Notes under the pieces: model-generated
What the model saw: only the letters and a program-made list of their open reading frames with translations
Told to the model about the DNA's origin: nothing
Databases searched by the model: none
Part shown: positions 27,413 to 38,643 of the stretch, in pieces
Numbering within the stretch: position 1 is the first letter of the stretch
How the letters are laid out: the number at the start of each line of letters is the position of its first letter
Translations under genes and position numbers: made by a program
Origin: Naegleria gruberi
Taxonomy: Eukaryota
DNA length: 64,000 nt
Reading direction: 5' to 3' (one strand)
Assembly: GCA_000004985.1 (NCBI GenBank)
Contig: GG738850.1

Positions 27413-30400
27413 ATGAACCCAAACAATCGACCACCTCATCCTACAACAGCAGGAGGTTATTATTCTTCATCATCTGGAAATAATAATAACGTGGTCGGCG
27501 GTGGTGGTTTTAATCAACAACAAAATCACTCTTCATCAGGAATTCCTCCACATAATAGACAAGGCTTTCCTACGGGACAAGGAAGAACAAATCAAAATGG
27601 CCCAATTGTACAAAATAGACAACAACATCCACCAAGAAATGTAAATAATCCTAATACAAATCCAAATAATATTCCATCAACAATGCAACAAAATAGAAAA
27701 AAACATCCATCAGGTAGTCAATCCTCATATCCAACACAACCTCATCAATCATATCATAACAATACAACAGGAAGTGGATTTAGTACACAAGCTGGACATA
27801 AAGCAACGTTTGGAAAAAAAGGTCAAGAAGTTGTTGTTGAACAATTATCAGCAAAATTAGGATTTCCGGATGTCTTTCTATGTGAACAAAATTCTAGTAG
27901 ACCGGTCATGGAATTGTCTTTTACACCTAGTACTGCTCGTGATGGTTATGTTGACAAGTCATTTTCATATATTGATCGTGAACCAATTGATTCTCATGGA
28001 ACTCACTTCTTTAATAATGATTTTTATAATTTATTAGAAAAATCTGAACAAACTTTAAGGGATGAGTACAAGACTTTTTCAACAAACAAAACAAGGGAAG
28101 AAATGAAACAAAGATTCGAAAATGCCTACAATTCTTGCAGTTGTACAGCTAATAATTCCTTCTTCCCAAAACTCACAGATACAGGTACTATGTTCAAAGC
28201 CCTTGCTGGAAGACCTGATGAGCAAAAAAGATCATCCCTTGCATCTTCAAGAACATCTCTTAGAGAATTGGCATCAAAACTTTCTAGATATTATGTTAAA
28301 CCTAACTTCTTTGAACTTTTAGCACAAAACAATATTCCATTCTTCAGAGCCTTATGGTACACTAAAATTCTTATTAGAGACATTAATACCAACATTACAA
28401 ATGTAAAGGATCTAGCACAAGATTTAACAACCAAGTTTTGTGACTACTTGCTTACATCTTGTAACGATGACAGTACAGATCCTAAAAAGAAGAACTCAAT
28501 TGTGTATACCATCAACTTTTTATCCTATTGCCTTGAAGAGAATTTATTGAATGAAAATGTTTTAGGACAAAGGCTATTAGAAATTTTAGAAATCAAGTTT
28601 GGTATCAAACCAAAAGCAAGCAAGGATACACCTCTCATGGATGCATACTTTTTCTCATTACTTTATGTTAAAACAAGTGATCAAATTTATCAACAACTGT
28701 CAACTACAATCCAATCATCTAAAAAGGTTGGCTCGGTGATCAAATTTTATGTATTACAATTATTTAAATTATTTATGATGCATTCTTCCGATCCAAAATT
28801 TACATTTGAAATTTTTAGAAGACTAAATCCTGGACAACAACAACTTTCATTAGACAGTGTTAAAAATCTATTTTGCAAAATTAAGGATGATATTTATGCC
28901 ATCAATGTACTTGATAGACATAATTGTAACATTCCAGAGTTATATAATATTCTCTTGAATAACAAGGAAGTTGGTGTTCAACTCATATCTACCATTTGCA
29001 AGTGGGCTATTACTCCAAAACGATTCCAAAACTATAGGCCATATATTGCAGGTACCTTGGTGAATAACTTTATCAAACAAAATCCTACAATGAAGAAACA
29101 AGTAGAAGATACCTTATTCAAAGAAGTTCTAAATTATTCAGAGGAGCCTACTCCAGATACTTACAAAAATATGTTGAAACTATTCAATGAGCTAATTCTT
29201 CAAAATAACTTTTCCATTAGTGAATATATCAAATATCTTACATCTAGAGGTTTTAATGTAGCTAAGACAGATGAATTTAACACTAGGCACACCAATATTC
29301 TCAAAAATTTGCCCTCATATGATCCTAACACAAAGAATAAGATTTACTCTAAACTCTATGGCACCAAACATGAAATTGTGAGGAAAAACCAGCAAACTGA
29401 AACTGAAATCCAAGAAAATATTTTCAAACTTATTAATGGAGGCAGTGATCATAATATTTCCTCCATTATTGAAAGTATGACTCTTTTACCAGAAAATGGA
29501 ATGCAGTTTGAAATTACACAACAAATAGCTGAGCATGTAAAGACTATGGATCTTGCATATTTATCGGAACAAACAATAGATAGTATTTTGGCAATTATGA
29601 TCTCAGTATCCAATCTTAGAGCTTTTAGAGATATTGTGTATAATATTACTACCAAACTCATCTCTGGAGAATTTAAATCTCCTAATCTAGAAATTAAGAT
29701 GTTTTCTATTATTAAGAATAGTCTCCAGCTCTTCATTTCTTTAGACGATTCAGATATCATTGATATATTCCAAAAACGATTCAAAACAACAAACAACAGA
29801 AATATTCAATCTATTATCCATAGATACATTACCGAAATATCAACAACTCCAAATGCTGACCCTTTCAAAACAAAAATAACCAAATTTACCAACGATTGTA
29901 ATGTCATTCCTGCTCCAATTAATATCGAGCAATCGCCTACAATCCACCCATTTACACAGTATATACAAAGCCAAGATATTATTTTGATACCGTCCAACAT
30001 CTTGGTTTCCGAATTAACCAAATCCCCTACCAAATTCTCCAACGATCAACTTAAACATTTAATTGAGGTACTATTCGAAAAATTCCAAAAGCATAGAGTA
30101 GACACTTACATAACAGTCTTGAGAGATATGTATACATTTAGTCATCTATTATCTGATACTTCAATTATTGAATGCTTTAAGGATTTCATTATTTCAACAC
30201 TTGACAGTACTCAGTACATTAGAGAAAAGCACTCTTCACTCATTCTATTCTGTATGAAAGCTGTAACTTGTGGTGTTCTCTCTGGATACACCTTCCTCAA
30301 TCATATATTATTTAACGTATTTGATAATCTCAAGTCTAAGGTTGCAACTATTTCTAAGCCTAATCCACAAGTCCAAGCCATTACATCTATTCATGCTATG

Positions 30401-32128
30401 TTATCATCTACAAAGACCAGTATCTTCCAACATGTAAACTTTATAAGAGTTTTCTCGAACTTTTCCAGATGCTTATCAAAAGAAAGAATAACTACTCTCG
30501 CTAATAATTGTGGTATATCTGAGGAAGTGGAAGCTGTTGACAGAGAAATTTATGAAGACGTCAAGACCACACTTCTCTATGATTTCCTTGGCCCTATAGA
30601 AGCAAAAGAAACCATCCACAAGATGTCAATTTCTTGCAAGAGTATTCATGATAACGTCAAATCAAGCAAGAAAAGTACAAAAGATATCTTTGCATTCAGT
30701 TCTCTTGTCTATGAAGCCATGATAGAAATACTATTGGATTATCTTTCTAATGAAAAGTCTTTGCAGGACATTAGTCGTACATTGTCCTACACTCAAGATT
30801 GTTTAGGACCACTTTACGAACTTCCATCTCTTCAAACCAAGCCAAAAGAAGGGGATGGCACAGGTAAAAGCAATTCCAAAGATAGTGATTATGGTAACAA
30901 ATATCAAGCCATCACAACTTTGGTTGCCAACTTGTGTAAACCATTTTCAACAATCAGAGATATGGTTCCTGAGAAGCTATTCTCCTTCCTTAGTCAAAGT
31001 ACAAGTATTAATGACTATCTTCAATTTATAATGTCTCTCTCCAATCAGAGTGACAAGTGGAGAATAGCGTTAGACTCCCAACTTTTATTCTTATTTATGT
31101 TTACTTGGAATAGAAGAAAGGCACTCACAAAAGAACAATACCATCACTTTGTCGCAAGAAAAGGTCAGGAAAATTCCTTCTACTTTTATGCCAAATCACT
31201 TTTACTTACCTCATTCTACCCACCTTTCTCTGAGCTACAAGATGTTATTTTAGATCATTTCAAATTATCAATCAACTATAGCGAAAAACGTCAACAAGAT
31301 ATTGAAGCTCTCTTACCTATTGTTGAAGAGCTTATTCGACTCGATTTTTCCAAAGCAGAAACAGCCTGCAAATGTATTCTGGATGCCATTCAAGCCATCT
31401 CCAATCCCTCCTCCTCACAATCCTCTACCCCTGGCACTCCTACTCCACATTCATTCCCTTCCACTCGTGAAAGACTTACTACTTGTTTATTATGTCTTAA
31501 AGAAATTATTTTCTCCTCTCCACTTTTGGAATCACATGAAGATAAATTTGGAGAAAGAAAGAGAACCACTACAGTTCCACAAATCAAATCAATTTTAATT
31601 AATTTATGTACCAACAAGATTTTGCCATCAGTATTTAACACACCTATCCAAAAACCAGAAGACGTAGCATTATATGATATTTATTATTTAATTTATGGAA
31701 TGTTAGCCAAGTTAAAGATACCCCAAGAAGAATTGAATAAGGAATTTGAAAAATTATTCCAAAAAGAGAATAATCTACAAGTCTCTAATCCAAGAACTAT
31801 ACAAGTTGGAACACCTGTCAGCACACCAACCTCCAGTAGAAGAACTCCAACACCTGGTGGTGCCAGCAAAATGTCTCCAATTATTAGCCCTCAACAATCA
31901 CCAGTTCCAATGTCTCCACAAGTTGCTACCGTTAGACAAGAGCAAAACAGGGTCATCAGCAGCTGGTTTGTAATTGAGGATTACGTTTCCAATTGTTCTC
32001 ATTGTAACTCTTGCCATGGTAATTTAACTCCTGCACGTTTCCAGGGTAAAGTTGTTAAGAAGACTGAATTGATATTTGCCAAAAAGCCAGAAACCGTCAA
32101 CTCCAGCAATCCTTTCCAACCACATTAA
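27413..32128 (+). CDS. Large (1,571 aa) hypothetical nuclear protein with an N-terminal Q/N/P-rich disordered region; function unassigned
   Basis: Single continuous ORF preceded by a tataaata element at about 27363. The N-terminal 130 aa are low complexity (NNNVVGGGGFNQQQNHSS..., PPRNVNNPNTNPNN); the rest is predicted helical. A +1-frame ORF with a KKRK NLS continues past the stop (see findings). Confidence 0.7.
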   Translation: MNPNNRPPHPTTAGGYYSSSSGNNNNVVGGGGFNQQQNHSSSGIPPHNRQGFPTGQGRTNQNGPIVQNRQQHPPRNVNNPNTNPNNIPSTMQQNRKKHPSGSQSSYPTQPHQSYHNNTTGSGFSTQAGHKATFGKKGQEVVVEQLSAKLGFPDVFLCEQNSSRPVMELSFTPSTARDGYVDKSFSYIDREPIDSHGTHFFNNDFYNLLEKSEQTLRDEYKTFSTNKTREEMKQRFENAYNSCSCTANNSFFPKLTDTGTMFKALAGRPDEQKRSSLASSRTSLRELASKLSRYYVKPNFFELLAQNNIPFFRALWYTKILIRDINTNITNVKDLAQDLTTKFCDYLLTSCNDDSTDPKKKNSIVYTINFLSYCLEENLLNENVLGQRLLEILEIKFGIKPKASKDTPLMDAYFFSLLYVKTSDQIYQQLSTTIQSSKKVGSVIKFYVLQLFKLFMMHSSDPKFTFEIFRRLNPGQQQLSLDSVKNLFCKIKDDIYAINVLDRHNCNIPELYNILLNNKEVGVQLISTICKWAITPKRFQNYRPYIAGTLVNNFIKQNPTMKKQVEDTLFKEVLNYSEEPTPDTYKNMLKLFNELILQNNFSISEYIKYLTSRGFNVAKTDEFNTRHTNILKNLPSYDPNTKNKIYSKLYGTKHEIVRKNQQTETEIQENIFKLINGGSDHNISSIIESMTLLPENGMQFEITQQIAEHVKTMDLAYLSEQTIDSILAIMISVSNLRAFRDIVYNITTKLISGEFKSPNLEIKMFSIIKNSLQLFISLDDSDIIDIFQKRFKTTNNRNIQSIIHRYITEISTTPNADPFKTKITKFTNDCNVIPAPINIEQSPTIHPFTQYIQSQDIILIPSNILVSELTKSPTKFSNDQLKHLIEVLFEKFQKHRVDTYITVLRDMYTFSHLLSDTSIIECFKDFIISTLDSTQYIREKHSSLILFCMKAVTCGVLSGYTFLNHILFNVFDNLKSKVATISKPNPQVQAITSIHAMLSSTKTSIFQHVNFIRVFSNFSRCLSKERITTLANNCGISEEVEAVDREIYEDVKTTLLYDFLGPIEAKETIHKMSISCKSIHDNVKSSKKSTKDIFAFSSLVYEAMIEILLDYLSNEKSLQDISRTLSYTQDCLGPLYELPSLQTKPKEGDGTGKSNSKDSDYGNKYQAITTLVANLCKPFSTIRDMVPEKLFSFLSQSTSINDYLQFIMSLSNQSDKWRIALDSQLLFLFMFTWNRRKALTKEQYHHFVARKGQENSFYFYAKSLLLTSFYPPFSELQDVILDHFKLSINYSEKRQQDIEALLPIVEELIRLDFSKAETACKCILDAIQAISNPSSSQSSTPGTPTPHSFPSTRERLTTCLLCLKEIIFSSPLLESHEDKFGERKRTTTVPQIKSILINLCTNKILPSVFNTPIQKPEDVALYDIYYLIYGMLAKLKIPQEELNKEFEKLFQKENNLQVSNPRTIQVGTPVSTPTSSRRTPTPGGASKMSPIISPQQSPVPMSPQVATVRQEQNRVISSWFVIEDYVSNCSHCNSCHGNLTPARFQGKVVKKTELIFAKKPETVNSSNPFQPH

Positions 32129-33006
32129 TGGTGATAACAGTTCAAAGAAGAGAAAATCTGAATCTCCAATAACTCTTGACAATCATATCAATGAAGCTTC
32201 TATTGAATTCCCTGATAGTAAAAAGTTGAAACAATAAATAAGCTTAATTGTGTGGAAACTATTTATTAACAAACTGTGGTCACAAGTCTTCACAATTTGA
32301 AATTATTGGTGGTGTCAGTCATACTTCCTTAACTAAACCTGATATGTGTAAACATTCCATTTACTTGGTAAATCTTAGCTACTTAAACTGGTTTCAATAA
32401 AGTTGAATAAATAGGAAATAAATTCTTGGAGTATTATTCTAGAAGTTCTTGAAGATTTCATTCCCTGGAAAATATTATTGGTTCATCATGATTTTGAATA
32501 ATGACAAAATATATAAAAGTAATATTGAATTTGCTCCACTCCTTTTCAACAAATTTCATAGAAGTCCGATGTTACTAATAGTTGTTATTAATCCCAAAAG
32601 CTTAAGAGAAGACACGCCACTCAACTCTCTCAATCACCAATTCAAAATATTGCCAAAAGACGATCAGTGTAACAAAGTGATTAAAGTGAGAAAATAATTG
32701 TAGATGAATTAATTCTTAGTTGCTATTATCGATCATTGCTGTTTTGTGTGTTAATTGCTCCATCATAAGACTGTTGTAATAATGAACACAGCCAAGAAAT
32801 ATTATTCATGTTGTTGTTTTGGTGATTGAAGAAGACGTTCGAGGGTTGAAGTTTGCTGAATTTTTCACTTCCTTGTTTTTCAACCACAGAAATTATCAAC
32901 AAGCCAAAAATGCCCTCTCAAACTTTTGTTGTAAAATGTGTTTTACTAGGTTTACTCCAACAAAATTTTAAAAAACTTGTTGAAAAAAAATACGTCACAC
33001 TAGAAA

Positions 33007-33705
33007 ATGACTGCCGGCAAAAATAAGAGAGTTGTCAAGGGTAAGAAGACTAAGAAGATTACCGATCCATTCGCCAAGAAGGAATGGTTCGACGTCTTTG
33101 CTCCTCACCCATTCAACAAGAAGAAGACTGAACCATTCACCAAGACCCCAATCAATAAAACCGCTGGTACTAAAATCTCCACTGAAGCTTTGAAGGGAAG
33201 AGTCTTCGAAATCTCTGCTGCTGATTTGTTGAATGAAGAAGAACAACAACATCAACTCATCAGATTGGCTGTCGGTGATGCCAAGAGTGAAAATAAGAAG
33301 GCTTTGACTGTCTTCAACGGTTTGAGATTCACTGTTGATAAGCTCAGATCTTTGGTCAAGAAGTGGCACACACTCATTACCACCAGAATTAACGTTAAGA
33401 CTGCTGATGGTTTCCAAATGAGAGTTTTCGCTTTAGGTATTACCAAGAGAAGACAATTGCAAACTCACAAGAGAACTTATGCTTACAAGTCTCAAGTCAT
33501 GAGAATCACTGCCAGAATGAAGGATGCTATCAACAAGAAGGCTACTGCTTCTCCAGTCAATGAATTCGTTGAAAAGGTCGTTACTGGTCAATTGGGTAAG
33601 GAAATTGAAAAGTCCTGTGCTTCTATCTTCCCAATGAAGGACGTCTGTATCTGCAAGATTAAGGTCACCAAGACACCAAAGGATCTCGCTTCCGCTCTCC
33701 ACTAA
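33007..33705 (+). CDS. RPS3A: 40S ribosomal protein eS1 (S3a)
   Basis: MTAGKNKRVVKGKKTKKITDPFAKKEWFDVFAPHPF...GRVFEISAADL...VKKWHTLI...IFPMKDVCICKIKV aligns along its length with human RPS3A and yeast Rps1. 232 aa, ending ...PKDLASALH, shorter than orthologues at the C-terminus. Confidence 0.95.
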   Translation: MTAGKNKRVVKGKKTKKITDPFAKKEWFDVFAPHPFNKKKTEPFTKTPINKTAGTKISTEALKGRVFEISAADLLNEEEQQHQLIRLAVGDAKSENKKALTVFNGLRFTVDKLRSLVKKWHTLITTRINVKTADGFQMRVFALGITKRRQLQTHKRTYAYKSQVMRITARMKDAINKKATASPVNEFVEKVVTGQLGKEIEKSCASIFPMKDVCICKIKVTKTPKDLASALH

Positions 33706-34113: not shown

Positions 34114-36994
34114 ATGGGCTGTGGCACATTTTCCAAAAATTTGGTAGAGGACAGGCACACCCCAATAATTAGTAACAAAAAGTCATCATCAACGGCGGAT
34201 ATTCCACCAACAACAACAACAAATAATCCTTCAGAAACATCAGGTTCAGTCGATATATCGAATAGAAGAGTGTCCAAACAATCTTCAGTGAGAGCAAGTA
34301 AGGCTTCTACACTAGCCGAACAACTTTCTTCTCAGCAACAACATCAATCACACCAAGAAGAAGAATATTCTTTCGCGGACCACCAAGAAGAGGCTTATGC
34401 TTTTATTCCGTGGCCAGAAGATATAATGATCAGTCTCGCTACTAAGGGATCTAAATTTGAATTAAGAGAAGTATCACTTCTTCTACCATCGGATGAATTA
34501 AATCAAAAACCTCTTCTTAAATATGTAAAGGATAAGAGAAATAATTGTCAACAAAATATAATAGATTGCATGTATACAATCATGAGTAGGGTTCTAAACT
34601 TTGGAACCAATTTACCTTTTCCTGTAAATACTGAAAACCAATTTGATCTTGCCGTTGATTTCATTGCTAATGGCTGTCCAATTGGAAAACAACAATTTAC
34701 CTTCTTTTCTCATAAAGAAATCCTCCTACACAGAAGTGCGTTCTTCAAAGGAGAGTTATCAAAAGATAACGGAGCAGTAGATTCACTAAAAAGAACCCTT
34801 AGTAGTGCTCATGACCTTAGAAAATCGATGGTAAAGGCAGAATTCGCTGATAGAAGAAACACAGCAGGTGATCCATCACAGCTAAAACGAACGTCGAGTC
34901 ATATAACATCTCAAGGTCCTAGATCGAGTCTACCTCCAATGCCCTTACAAAAACGACCTTTTAATACAACAAGCTCTTCCAACCTCCTTCAGGGTATGGG
35001 TGATCTAAGCAAATCTGGATCTTCATCTTCGATAACAAGCGTTGAAGAGGGAGGTAATTCAGAGAAGGAAGAATTATTCTCCTCACAAGGTAGTTTATCA
35101 ACACTTTTACTAACAGAAGATTCTAGGAAAAAAGGACAACGAAAGCCAAACAACCAAAATTTAGCAGTCTCCATTTCTAAGCAAACAAAAGCAAATCTAC
35201 AGCCAAGTAGGTTAGAGGTTGCAATATCTCCTCTTGTAAAAGATCCAGAGATTTTGTTGTTAGTTTTTGAAAATATTTACTCTGGCTATTTCCGACCTGA
35301 ATACGTTCAAAAGATGAAATCTTTGGATATTGAAAGTTTAATTCAGATATTAGCACTAGGTTACCAATTTAAAGTTCATTCATTGAGAGCAGTTTCAAAA
35401 AGTTTAATCAGTCAGTTTTTGTGTACCCACAAGGATAAGTACACATCTTTGGAGGAGCTCATCAATGGAACTTGCAAGAATATAACTGTTGAGGATATTC
35501 AAAAAAACAATATGAGTATAGTTTTAGAATTGAAGAAAATTTTCATGGACTCTAAGAGTAAGTAATTAATCTAGAGAATTTCTAACATGCATTTTAATAG
35601 AATCATTACAAGAAAATTTCATTTCTCTATCACAAGAAAAAAGAACATTCCTTAAGGATCTAGATTTTATGTTTGTACATAGTAATATGAAGAAGAACCA
35701 TATGGACTTCAGTGACATGAAGTTAACAATACAGGTTGAAGAAAAAAAGGAAGAAGAGGAAAAAGAAGATGAATCCCCCAAGAGGTCGTCGTCTTTCAGG
35801 GATACTTATGAAGAAGATGTTCAACCACTAATAAGTCAAAGAAAGAAGAGGACGAGCAAACTTCAGGACAGTGTCGATAAGAGTCAAACTAAGAAAATAT
35901 TTATTCACAACTTTATACTGAAATCAAGAACAGATATTACAAATCCTGAAATATTTAATCTATACAGCACAAATGTTGATGTTGTGAAGACTTTTATTCA
36001 TTACCTGTATACAGATACTATACACAGTGATACATACAATGTGAGTAAGAAGAAGATAATACCTCTTGCTGCTTTGTTCAAGATTGATAGACTGAAATAT
36101 GAATGTTTGGCTCATGCTATTTTCAATTTATCGGATGAAAACATTCTCAGGAAGTTTAAGAAAGCTCAAGATGCTAAGGAGACTGTTCTTGCCCAAGCAA
36201 TTTTCTACACAATGTCACACATGTATCCTAAACTAGTCCAAAAGAACTATGAGGAAGGAACGCCAGAATATAATATTCTCTTCTCAATAGATGAAAAGCT
36301 TAGGCATTTATATCAGAGAATGAGTGGGCAATTCCTTATTAGAAGAAGAATATTTACAGAAAGTAGGTTGGCGGAGATAATACCGAGAGCTGATGTTTCT
36401 AAACTTTCTCCTTCTCAAAAATCTCCAAACCACAAGATTAATGTTCAAATATGTGGCCTTCACGGCTCTGGTCTTAGTACCTTCGTAAATCAAGCCAAAC
36501 CTCTCATCTCTGAACTTCATTCATTTGAAGGAGTTGACAATATTGAACTCAATATTTCTTCCATGTACATATCAGACAGACCATTTACTGCAAATTCTTT
36601 AAAGTCAACAGACGGTGTAATTTTTATATTTTCCATTGATTCAGTAGATTCCTACCAAACAATGAGAGCTAAGTATGACGACTTTAGATTCTATTCCAAA
36701 GTTCCAGCTGTAATAATAGGAAACAAATGCGATTTGATACTTTGTAATTTTGAAACAGAGGACAAGATTGTTGATTCAGACAGAATAGTGAAAGAAGTAA
36801 CTGAAGATATGGCTTGCCCATATCTTGAAATGTCTTCTAAAAATTCAAGTGATGTTAAAAGATCGCTTGAGGAATGCATAAGAGAAGTGTTGTTTTATAG
36901 ACATATCACTTCAAAGATACCAAGTCATTTCTTAAATACTATTGCTAGGGATCAACAAGGATTGGAATCATCAAGTAACATTTCAGAGGAATAA
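34114..36994 (+). CDS. N-myristoylatable BTB - BTB - Ras-like GTPase fusion protein, modelled as 2 exons (34114..35557, 35601..36994); alternatively two adjacent genes
   Basis: First ORF: MGCGTF (Gly2/Cys3), BTB elements FTFFSHKEILLHRSAFFKGEL ... LLLVFENIYSGYF ... LALGYQFKVHSLRAVSKSL. Its TAA stop (35563-65) overlaps a GTAAGT donor (35558-63); a branch-like ttctaac follows, then an AG at 35599/600 that rejoins the second ORF in frame (43-nt intron). Second part: acidic linker, second BTB (FIHNFILKS...FIHYLYTDTI...LAALFKIDRLKYECL), then a small-GTPase domain (GLHGSGLST degenerate P-loop, IGNKCDL = NKxD). Only about 100 bp separate the two ORFs, too little for an independent promoter. Confidence 0.6.
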
Positions 36995-37049: not shown

Positions 37050-38643
37050 ATGTATCCAAATAGAATGCTGGGGTTTACTTTCCCTAATTTTCCTCTCTTT
37101 CCACCAAGTAAAAATACAACACCACAACGGAATGATTTCAACGATTTATCAATTCTATGTGTTGCAAAAGAAGAACAGAAATCAATAACTGGTACGATCG
37201 ATGATTCGTCTTCTTCCTGTTCCGATCGCATCACAAAGAAACAAACAACAAAAAGAAAGAGATTATTTTGCAAGGAAAGTTACATTACATGTCAAGTAGG
37301 TTTTAAAGAAGATAGTTTCTAATCTAGATTCGGAATAGAGCAACTCTCAATTATATTCAACAATACAAGTTGTGGAGGAGGAAAATATTCTAATTCAACT
37401 GAACAAAATTCTTGATGCCTCCAATGACGAGCAATATTTTGGAATAACAATACTAGGAAACAAATATAATGTTAAAAAGACATCACATTTATACAGATTA
37501 AGATCCAAATTGGAGGTGAGGAGAAGGAAAAGATTAATAGGAGACTCTTTGGAGTTGTTTGATCTTGATCATATTTTACAACAAGTATCACTTCATTCAC
37601 AAAATAATCATTTCAAGCATCACGTTGTGAATAGCGATAGTATTCCTTATGTATTAAAATCTAAAATTCCAGTGATTGATAATTTTTCAAAATCAGAGAA
37701 TGAAATCAAGAAGGAATCAAAACCAGTTCCAATTCTTCCCAAGAAAATACTCCCTAAACCTATTGTAAATCAAAAGCCATCCCCAAAAAAAGGAAATACT
37801 CAAACTCAACAATCACTAGGACTGCCATTTATTGGTGGATATAATAATATCTCATTGCATTCTCCACTCATGTTTTTAACAACATCAAGAGAACTTCCAA
37901 TTACTTCACAAGTTATGCAACCACCCCCAACAAATATTCCTTTCAAAAACACATTTAATACGGACATTCAAATTACAACTCAAGCTTCTTCAAACAATGA
38001 AAAGTCAAAGAGACAAAAGATTGAAACAATAATTCCATTCAGTCAAAAATTACTAGGTTCAACAAAAATTACTGATATACTTTCGACGCATGATATTAGC
38101 TCATGTAATCTTGTAAAGTTATTCAAGGATATCACAAAACACAAGCAGAACATTATTTCTAACATACAATTGTGTAGAATCAAACCAACATTGTTGAAAC
38201 AAATTAATTCGCTCCTACAAAGATGTTTTTGGCCCAACATTGATGTAGAGAAATATCTCGAGCAACCAGATAGAACTATTGTAGCCATGTACAATCATTT
38301 GGTTGTTGGATTCGGAGTTGTGACAAGTGAAGGATATATTCATTACTTGGTTGTTATGCCACAGTTTAGAAATTATGGAATAGGTTCATTACTAATTGAA
38401 CAATTATTGAAATGCAACAGATCTTCTGAATTCACAATTCATATTCCACTGGAAGACAAGAAAACTATTTCATTTATGAAGAAAAGGTTTGGATTTAATT
38501 CTAAAGCTGTACATTGTGATTTCTTTAAAAGTTTGGTAGAATCTCCCAATAATAATATTTCTCTAACACAATATCAAACTAATATTACAGATTTCTTTAA
38601 AGAGAAATCTAGTGATGCATTATTAATGGTACGATCTAATTAA
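37050..38643 (+). CDS. GNAT-family N-acetyltransferase with a long N-terminal region, 2 exons (37050..37295, 37339..38643), about 517 aa
   Basis: C-terminal GNAT motif A: HLVVGFGVVTSEGYIHYLVVMPQFRNYGIGSLLIEQLL. The second ORF has no ATG (track start is GTG) but is open upstream to an AG at 37337/38. The first ORF ends at a GTAGGT donor (37296), leaving a 43-nt intron with a ctaat branch, in frame as ...SYITCQ|SNLQLYSTIQVVEEEN.... Confidence 0.65.

Follow-up and report, generated by a model that had tools for sequence, protein, structure and literature searches.

The closest described counterparts of the gene reported here include the RhoBTB proteins, in which an N-terminal Rho GTPase is followed by a proline-rich linker, two successive BTB domains and a C-terminal BACK-like region (PMC4931677). 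The first of these BTB domains is bipartite and binds both Cul3 and the GTPase domain of the same protein, resulting in autoinhibition (PMC4931677). Here we describe a gene at positions 34114-36994 (+) of a 64,000-nt stretch of Naegleria gruberi DNA from contig GG738850.1 (hereafter called the window). Like metazoan RhoBTB1-3, Dictyostelium RacA and the RhoBTB of Naegleria itself, its product combines two BTB domains with a small-GTPase fold whose G domain is atypical, but the domain order is reversed (BTB, BTB, G domain). On balance, we think it probable that this single gene encodes a non-switching Ras-fold module carried on a membrane-tethered BTB scaffold, which is most likely a Cul3-type adaptor.

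Two other groups of proteins offer useful comparisons. The pseudoGTPases, a class that Stiegler and Boggon reportedly defined in 2020, include CENP-M, the pG1 and pG2 domains of p190RhoGAP, Rnd and RhoH, and likewise keep the GTPase fold after loss of residues for phosphate binding and hydrolysis. They constitute a functional class rather than a homologous family, and the protein described here differs from them in retaining the NKxD and SAK-like motifs for base recognition. Relative to the BTB-3-box/BACK adaptors of Cul3 (SPOP, KEAP1, KLHL11 and KLHL22) and to NPR1, the protein has no MATH, Kelch or ankyrin domain, and a Ras fold occupies that position instead.

The gene and its BTB-plus-Ras make-up have already been published, and are unusual but not new. 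In Herman et al. 2021 (BMC Biol 19:142, Table S8 and Supplementary Material 4), XP_002681393.1 is listed as a corrected model comprising Ras and the additional domain BTB. The manually corrected N. gruberi model given there begins MGCGTFSKNLVEDRH (MGCGTFSK), the N. fowleri counterpart is called Ras34, and no orthologue is recorded outside Heterolobosea. The same paper reports genuine RhoBTB genes in Naegleria, proposes GTPase-dependent ubiquitination for these fusions, and connects this gene with ubiquitin ligases. Within the searched text of that source, 'BTB' is the only additional domain given for the gene, with no 'P-loop' or 'myristoyl' and no mention of a split BTB1, loss of G1-G3, an acylation motif at the N-terminus, or homologues from Willaertia or environmental samples. 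The additions made here are incremental, and consist of a second, split BTB domain, the family-wide loss of G1/G2/G3, a conserved motif for acylation, homologues from Willaertia and from environmental samples, and an error in the RefSeq model.

A small family of homologues

An exhaustive profile search of 1.84 billion representative proteins, at a threshold of E<=1e-10, returned only 14 proteins, several of which are unrelated canonical or tandem small GTPases. Word-indexed homologue searches recovered 2-5 proteins each, and the distant members of the family surfaced only in the exhaustive search. The family includes proteins of three Naegleria species and of Willaertia, together with the close environmental fragments P0006, P0007 and P0008. 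Three distant members from environmental or draft assemblies (P0009, P0010/P0157 and the partial P0011), at 23-27% identity, have the same architecture and the same MGC start.

One spliced gene encodes the BTB-BTB-Ras fusion

The window contains two successive open reading frames (ORFs) that can be joined by removal of a short intron. The relevant features are as follows.

34114-35565 (+): ORF1, 483 amino acids (aa), ending at the TAA at 35563-35565
35603-36994 (+): ORF2, in frame from 35603, whose ATG is at 35669 and whose stop codon is 36992-36994
34114..35557 (+): exon 1, which encodes residues 1-481 and contributes base 1 of codon 482; the orthologues of N. lovaniensis, N. fowleri and Willaertia are collinear with it
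35558..35600 (+): spliceosomal intron of 43 nt in phase 1, with GTAAGT as the donor, TAG as the acceptor and a branch-like TTCTAAC between them
35601..36994 (+): exon 2, comprising bases 2 and 3 of codon 482, the codons up to residue 945, and the TAA stop
35601..35698 (+): linker of the two BTB domains, spanning the exon junction, residues 482-514, KSLQENFISLSQEKRTFLKDLDFMFVHSNMKKNH, containing 22 codons upstream of the ORF2 ATG

When nucleotides 35558-35600 (GTAAGTAATTAATCTAGAGAATTTCTAACATGCATTTTAATAG) are taken out, the reconstructed transcript fuses ORF1 and ORF2 in frame and encodes 945 aa. The best homologue, C9374_001891 of N. lovaniensis, has the same length of 945 aa and is 61% identical across 99% of it, and its gene is interrupted at the identical codon and in the same phase by an intron of 50 nt, GTAAGT...CAG (L001 9433-9482). 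An intron at this site is likely in N. fowleri as well. In addition to the GTAAGT donor, the N. gruberi and N. lovaniensis introns both carry a GAGAATTT(C/T)TAAC block, which is likely to be the branch site. In Willaertia, the orthologue (876 aa) shares 43% identity and is a single uninterrupted ORF, from which the intron may have been lost or in which it may never have been present, and the distant homologues P0009 and P0010 are also continuous, intronless ORFs. Moreover, conservation across the entire protein peaks in the linker spanning the junction, which is 93% identical in N. lovaniensis and N. fowleri and 69% identical in Willaertia.

Because the N. lovaniensis gene is interrupted by an intron at this position, the Willaertia ORF is continuous, and the junction peptide is 93% conserved, we conclude that 34114-36994 (+) is a single two-exon gene, as had been claimed in an earlier note prepared from this sequence. 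The independent hand correction by Herman et al. 2021 and the fit of the 945-aa model to its orthologues agree with this conclusion. All the features named in that note are present where it had placed them, and its splice junction, 35557/35601, is exact.

We assign next to no probability to the existence of two independent genes, or of a functionally important BTB-only isoform in which a 483-aa product ends at the donor TAA and ORF2 is translated from the ATG at 35669. ORF1 and ORF2 each have an ATG and a stop, prokaryote-style gene callers do split the ORFs on metagenomic contigs (P0162, P0012), and any short intron is plausibly retained at times. However, those split ORFs derive from DNA of metagenomic run ERR1078381 rather than from RNA, the 22 codons that precede the ORF2 ATG belong to the best-conserved part of the protein, and the whole protein is encoded by one uninterrupted ORF in Willaertia, P0009 and P0010. 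Furthermore, the immediate stop is not conserved, since the introns of N. lovaniensis and N. fowleri (P0006) remain open for at least 10 codons.

This last observation also bears on the placement of the ORF1 stop codon, which the earlier note had presented as embedded in a splice donor. The overlap itself is real, in that the TAA (35563-35565) begins at donor position +6, the last base of the GTAAGT hexamer (35558-35563). A functional significance was considered and dropped because the stop is not conserved in N. lovaniensis or N. fowleri and Willaertia has no intron. The stop is an incidental by-product of GTAAGTAA in phase 1.

The deposited protein, XP_002681393.1 / EFC48649.1 (P0161), is 828 aa in length, and differs from our reconstruction only by the splicing out of residues ~365-481, which form the C-terminal half of BTB1. 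This RefSeq/JGI model is mis-spliced, and the correct product is the 945-aa protein produced by removal of the 43-nt intron only, which fits all orthologues. Both ORFs are long and conserved in a genome of 33% GC, with orthologues at 61% and 43% identity, and are not chance occurrences. A pseudogene is likewise ruled out by the intact ORFs with conserved columns across Naegleria and Willaertia.

Contigs L006 and L007 (ENA ERZ929261, run ERR1078381) also carry this gene, and one of them aligns at 99.8% to the window with the intron included. They were considered as transcript evidence and ruled out, given that the aligned contig spans the intron and is unspliced genomic DNA from a metagenomic run. 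Separately, these contigs point to the presence of N. gruberi DNA in that sample.

The Ras-like domain keeps its fold and has lost its switch motifs

The C-terminal domain matches a single Pfam GTPase family, Ras (PF00071), at 43 bits against a cut-off of 21.6 (E=4.7e-11), although the match covers profile positions 65-160 only. Sequence matches in the PDB are best for Rap2A, Rab1A and HRas (E=2.6e-6 to 1e-3), and RhoA follows at 1.6e-3. The G domain is confidently predicted in an AlphaFold2 model of exon 2, with predicted local distance difference test (pLDDT) values of 70-90, and Foldseek aligns 164-194 columns of this model with full-length Ras, Rho, Rab and Rheb structures (target template modeling score 0.65-0.75, E~1e-7). 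As modelled, the small-GTPase fold is complete. The G motifs were assigned from an alignment of the family with H-Ras (HRAS) and Rap2A (RAP2A), as follows.

36425..36916 (+): Ras-like G domain with degenerate catalytic motifs, residues ~757-920
36455..36481 (+): G1/P-loop, canonically GxxxxGK[S/T] and here GLHGSGLST, residues 767-775
36572..36586 (+): G3/switch II, SDRPF in place of DTAGQ, with the DxxG Gly and the catalytic Gln61 lost
36722..36733 (+): G4, an intact [N/T]KxD motif for guanine-base specificity, NKCD (residues 856-859; GNKCD is residues 855-859)
36833..36841 (+): G5-like SSK (SAK in Ras), residues 893-895

In the P-loop, Leu773 occupies the position of Lys16, Ser774 (Ser17) is kept, and His769 is found at the position of Ras Gly12. 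The earlier note had recorded that the P-loop GLHGSGLST lacks its Lys and that NKxD is kept, and both statements hold in the sequence and in the HRAS/RAP2A alignment. The loss is nonetheless wider than it had reported, for it extends to the DxxG Gly, to Gln61, and to the switch I Thr, for which the G2/switch I region (SFEGVDN) offers no alignable residue. Downstream of NKCD, in the place of the Rho insert, the domain has an extra loop of ~8 residues with low pLDDT (model residues 378-388).

These losses are common to the family. The P-loop Lys is absent in seven of eight members, and DxxG is absent in all. The P-loop sequences are listed below.

N. gruberi: GLHGSGLST
N. lovaniensis and N. fowleri: GQRGVGVST
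Willaertia: GKKGSGVST
P0007: GPRGAGVST
P0011: GDTGVGVST
P0157: GTEGCGRST
P0009: GDANVGKKT

Other parts of the domain are strongly conserved. Residues G855, N856 and K857 of the G4 motif are conserved in at least 90% of the aligned sequences and D859 is invariant, and the near-invariant columns also include G767, G772, T775, D819 and the three residues P888, Y889 and E891, which precede SSK. Even so, among the folded parts of the protein the G domain shows the lowest conservation, with 50% identity between N. gruberi and N. lovaniensis compared to 75-84% for the BTB parts, and this faster evolution suggests that catalytic constraint has been relaxed.

The motif losses fit an inactive or non-switching Ras domain. 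Because they are common to three Naegleria species, Willaertia and the distant environmental homologues, the loss of switch and catalytic elements is ancient and maintained, rather than a sign of recent decay. Maintenance of the gene itself is indicated by its intact ORFs in four named species and by the near-invariant columns.

A different interpretation, which follows the idea of Herman et al. 2021, is that the Ras-like domain is a working, though non-canonical, GTP-binding switch whose GTP/GDP state controls BTB/Cul3-dependent ubiquitination. The basic residue at P-loop position 12 (His769, or Arg/Lys in relatives) could then replace the lost Lys. Indeed, of the six members with neither Lys nor Arg at position 16, five have His, Arg or Lys at position 12, and in the members with Lys or Arg at position 16, position 12 is Ala or Glu. 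This basic residue may be a relocated one or may reflect one clade-specific substitution. Conservation of NKCD, SSK, Ser774 and the P-loop glycines, retention of GK in the distant P0009, and the proposal of GTPase-dependent ubiquitination by Herman et al. 2021 also favor a switch. We nevertheless consider this interpretation unlikely. The DxxG Gly and Gln61 are absent in all members and no switch I Thr can be aligned, such that the elements that sense the gamma-phosphate and those that catalyze hydrolysis are missing. In addition, the five position-12 cases belong to one clade and thus amount to a single evolutionary event, and the G domain evolves faster than the BTB domains. Even the conservative K16R mutant of Rac1 is described as deficient in GTP loading (review, PMC13236570).

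Two BTB domains and a predicted acylation motif precede the G domain

The region upstream of the G domain is organized as follows.

34114..34125 (+): MGCG N-terminus, a predicted motif for N-myristoylation (Gly2) and palmitoylation (Cys3)
34636..34767 (+): N-terminal part of BTB1, residues ~175-218, two strands and helices, HKEILLHRSAFFKGEL
34768..35199 (+): predicted-disordered insertion of ~145 residues splitting BTB1, residues 219-362, pLDDT <50 at model residues 125-268
35200..35556 (+): C-terminal part of BTB1 and 3-box/BACK-like helices, residues 363-481
35699..36136 (+): BTB2, residues ~515-660
35738-35887 (+): acidic low-complexity insertion in BTB2, residues 528-577, present in Naegleria and Willaertia
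36137..36424 (+): helical spacer joining BTB2 to the G domain, residues ~661-756, helices 181-241 in the AlphaFold2 model of the C-terminal half, pLDDT ~75-90

The AlphaFold2 model reveals a BTB fold in BTB1 that is followed by 3-box/BACK-like helices, and the domain is bipartite because the insertion sits between helix 2 and strand 3. BTB1 and its 3-box-like helices resemble SPOP, KEAP1 and KLHL11. Although predicted to be disordered, the insertion is 69-70% identical among the Naegleria species, and it contains many basophilic Ser/Thr motifs (KRTLSS, RRNTAG, LKRTSS and PRSSLPP), some of which are common to Willaertia. Its conservation and its abundance of these motifs suggest that the insertion is probably a phospho-regulatory segment.

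BTB2 is a degenerate BTB domain. It scores 18.2 bits against Pfam BTB (PF00651) in N. gruberi and 22.2 bits in N. fowleri, relative to a cut-off of 20.5, and the homologous position in P0009, P0010 and P0011 scores 59-64 bits. Alignment with these distant homologues reveals a deletion of ~16 residues from the helix-2/loop segment in Naegleria and Willaertia. When the family profile was compared with the BTB domains of SPOP, NS1-BP, KLHL11 and KLHL22, E-values ranged from 3e-5 (SPOP) to 4e-3. Thus, the order BTB-BTB-Ras-like GTPase that had been read from the sequence at the outset is borne out by Pfam, by AlphaFold2 and by the homologue profiles.

At the N-terminus, the MGCG motif singled out earlier is followed by a low-complexity stretch, and M-G-C is invariant in all homologues whose N-terminus is present, including the distant P0009 (MGCGTS) and P0157 (MGCSVS). 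Dually acylated proteins begin with Met-Gly and have a Cys close by, and their position 6 is usually small or Ser/Thr. In this family, P0009 and P0157 have Ser at this position, and the sequences from Naegleria (Phe), Willaertia and P0008 have Phe or Leu.

Relationship to RhoBTB

The description of this gene as a 'reverse RhoBTB' in the earlier note is apt for the shape of the protein and the order of its domains, but the similarity is one of analogy only. In both proteins a long insertion divides the first BTB into two parts, a feature that for this gene we treat as analogous. In sequence matches the G domain is nearer to Ras, Rap and Rab than to Rho, with switch regions that are too degenerate to classify, and a predicted N-terminal acyl motif is present in place of a proline-rich linker or a C-terminal CAAX motif. 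Comparison by hhalign of the family with the partial N. gruberi RhoBTB XP_002678166.1 (~400 residues) aligned the G domains only (86% probability), and no homology was detected between the BTB region and that of this partial sequence.

These observations are pertinent to whether the gene is a rearranged descendant of RhoBTB, whose GTPase moved from the N- to the C-terminus, or an independent fusion of BTB and Ras domains. Descent from RhoBTB could be argued from the tandem BTB domains, the bipartite first BTB and the atypical G domain common to both, from the ~8-residue loop that follows NKCD where Rho proteins carry their insert, from Foldseek alignments that are slightly longer for RhoA chains, and from the fact that Naegleria possesses RhoBTB genes. 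We regard such descent as highly improbable, however, given the better matches to Rap2A, Rab1A and HRas than to RhoA, the restriction of the Pfam GTPase match to Ras, and the confinement of the profile alignment with the partial RhoBTB to the G domains. Furthermore, Herman et al. 2021 file the gene under the Ras family, apart from the RhoBTB entries.

Proposed function

In our preferred interpretation, the Ras-like domain would no longer act as a GTP-hydrolysing switch, and would instead serve as a constitutive binding or regulatory module that is either nucleotide-free or permanently bound to a guanine nucleotide. This module would be carried on an oligomeric scaffold assembled through the BTB domains and tethered to membranes by dual acylation, with myristoylation of Gly2 and palmitoylation of Cys3. 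The scaffold would most likely be a Cul3-type substrate adaptor, in which the G domain might recruit a substrate or might fold back on BTB1 as in RhoBTB, and the Ser/Thr-rich insertion of BTB1 would be a phospho-regulatory element. By analogy, adaptor activity is the most likely role for the scaffold because BTB1 and its 3-box-like helices resemble SPOP, KEAP1 and KLHL11 and because RhoBTB offers a precedent.

Several observations weigh against parts of this interpretation. The distant P0009 keeps the P-loop Lys (GDANVGKKT), and P0157 has Arg at this position (GTEGCGRST). The kept NKxD, the SAK-like motif, Ser774 and the P-loop glycines argue, at the level of sequence, that guanine-nucleotide binding is partly still selected. 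Because its base-recognition elements are still under selection, the G domain may be constitutively nucleotide-bound. Phe at residue 6 is atypical of N-myristoyltransferase substrates, and BTB2 falls below the Pfam threshold in N. gruberi, with its N-terminal half modelled at low confidence. Finally, canonical Cul3-contact features are not evident. The hydrophobic-x-Glu loop that usually contacts Cul3 falls at the site of the BTB1 insertion (ELSKD here). This loop is interrupted by the insertion (ELSKD...) in BTB1, and its segment is deleted in the BTB2 of Naegleria.

For this reason, a serious alternative is that the BTB domains act as cullin-free modules for oligomerization and scaffolding at the membrane, as in the non-degradative roles of KCTD- or NPR1-like proteins. 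The filling of the usual Cul3-contact loop in BTB1, its deletion in BTB2, and the degenerate nature of BTB2 all favor this alternative, while the resemblance of BTB1 and its 3-box-like helices to Cul3 adaptors and the RhoBTB precedent favor an adaptor. We view a cullin-free role as possible but doubtful.

A bolder version of the adaptor interpretation would hold that this is an ancient membrane-anchored BTB adaptor for a ubiquitin ligase, confined to Heterolobosea (the amoebae to which Naegleria belongs) and close relatives, with the Ras fold used as a non-hydrolysing guanine-nucleotide sensor or as a substrate receptor. The basic residue in contact with phosphate would have shifted along the P-loop from position 16 to position 12 (His/Arg/Lys), similar to the relocated catalytic lysine of WNK kinases, and phosphorylation of the BTB1 insertion would gate access to Cul3. 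We give this version only a slim chance of being correct.

Genomic context

The window is AT-rich eukaryotic DNA with a GC content of ~33%. The ORF immediately upstream of the gene (33007-33705) encodes a clear Ribosomal_S3Ae protein that exactly matches ribosomal protein S3a of N. gruberi NEG-M (XP_002681392.1), and the gene beside RPS3a is XP_002681393.1 / NAEGRDRAFT_46403 of this strain. Further upstream of RPS3a is a Med12-like gene (27413-32128). The order Med12 - RPS3a - BTB-BTB-Ras gene is common to N. gruberi (27413-33705), N. lovaniensis (L001 1819-7768) and Willaertia magna (L002 2122-7766). Downstream, an ORF at 37372-38643 encodes 423 aa with a C-terminal GNAT acetyltransferase domain (Pfam E=4.6e-7), preceded by a long N-terminal region that has no Pfam match.

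The distant homologue P0009 is encoded on contig Ga0606064_0074 (L003, JGI 3300062347, 72.5 kb), where the genes are compact and apparently intronless. This contig also carries unusual signalling fusions, which combine AhpC-TSA with RGS, and CHASE with PAS and RGS.

Implications

On a practical level, the 945-aa model should replace the 828-aa XP_002681393.1, and the annotation should gain a second, split BTB domain that was missed by sequence profiles. More broadly, fusion of a small-GTPase fold to tandem BTB domains apparently arose more than once in eukaryotes, here in the opposite order to RhoBTB, and the G domain has long been retained without its switch machinery. If our preferred interpretation is true, then this family would be a tractable case in which the scaffold of a ubiquitin ligase puts a Ras fold to new use as a fixed interaction module, and it would add to the picture of the very large and inventive GTPase repertoire of Naegleria.

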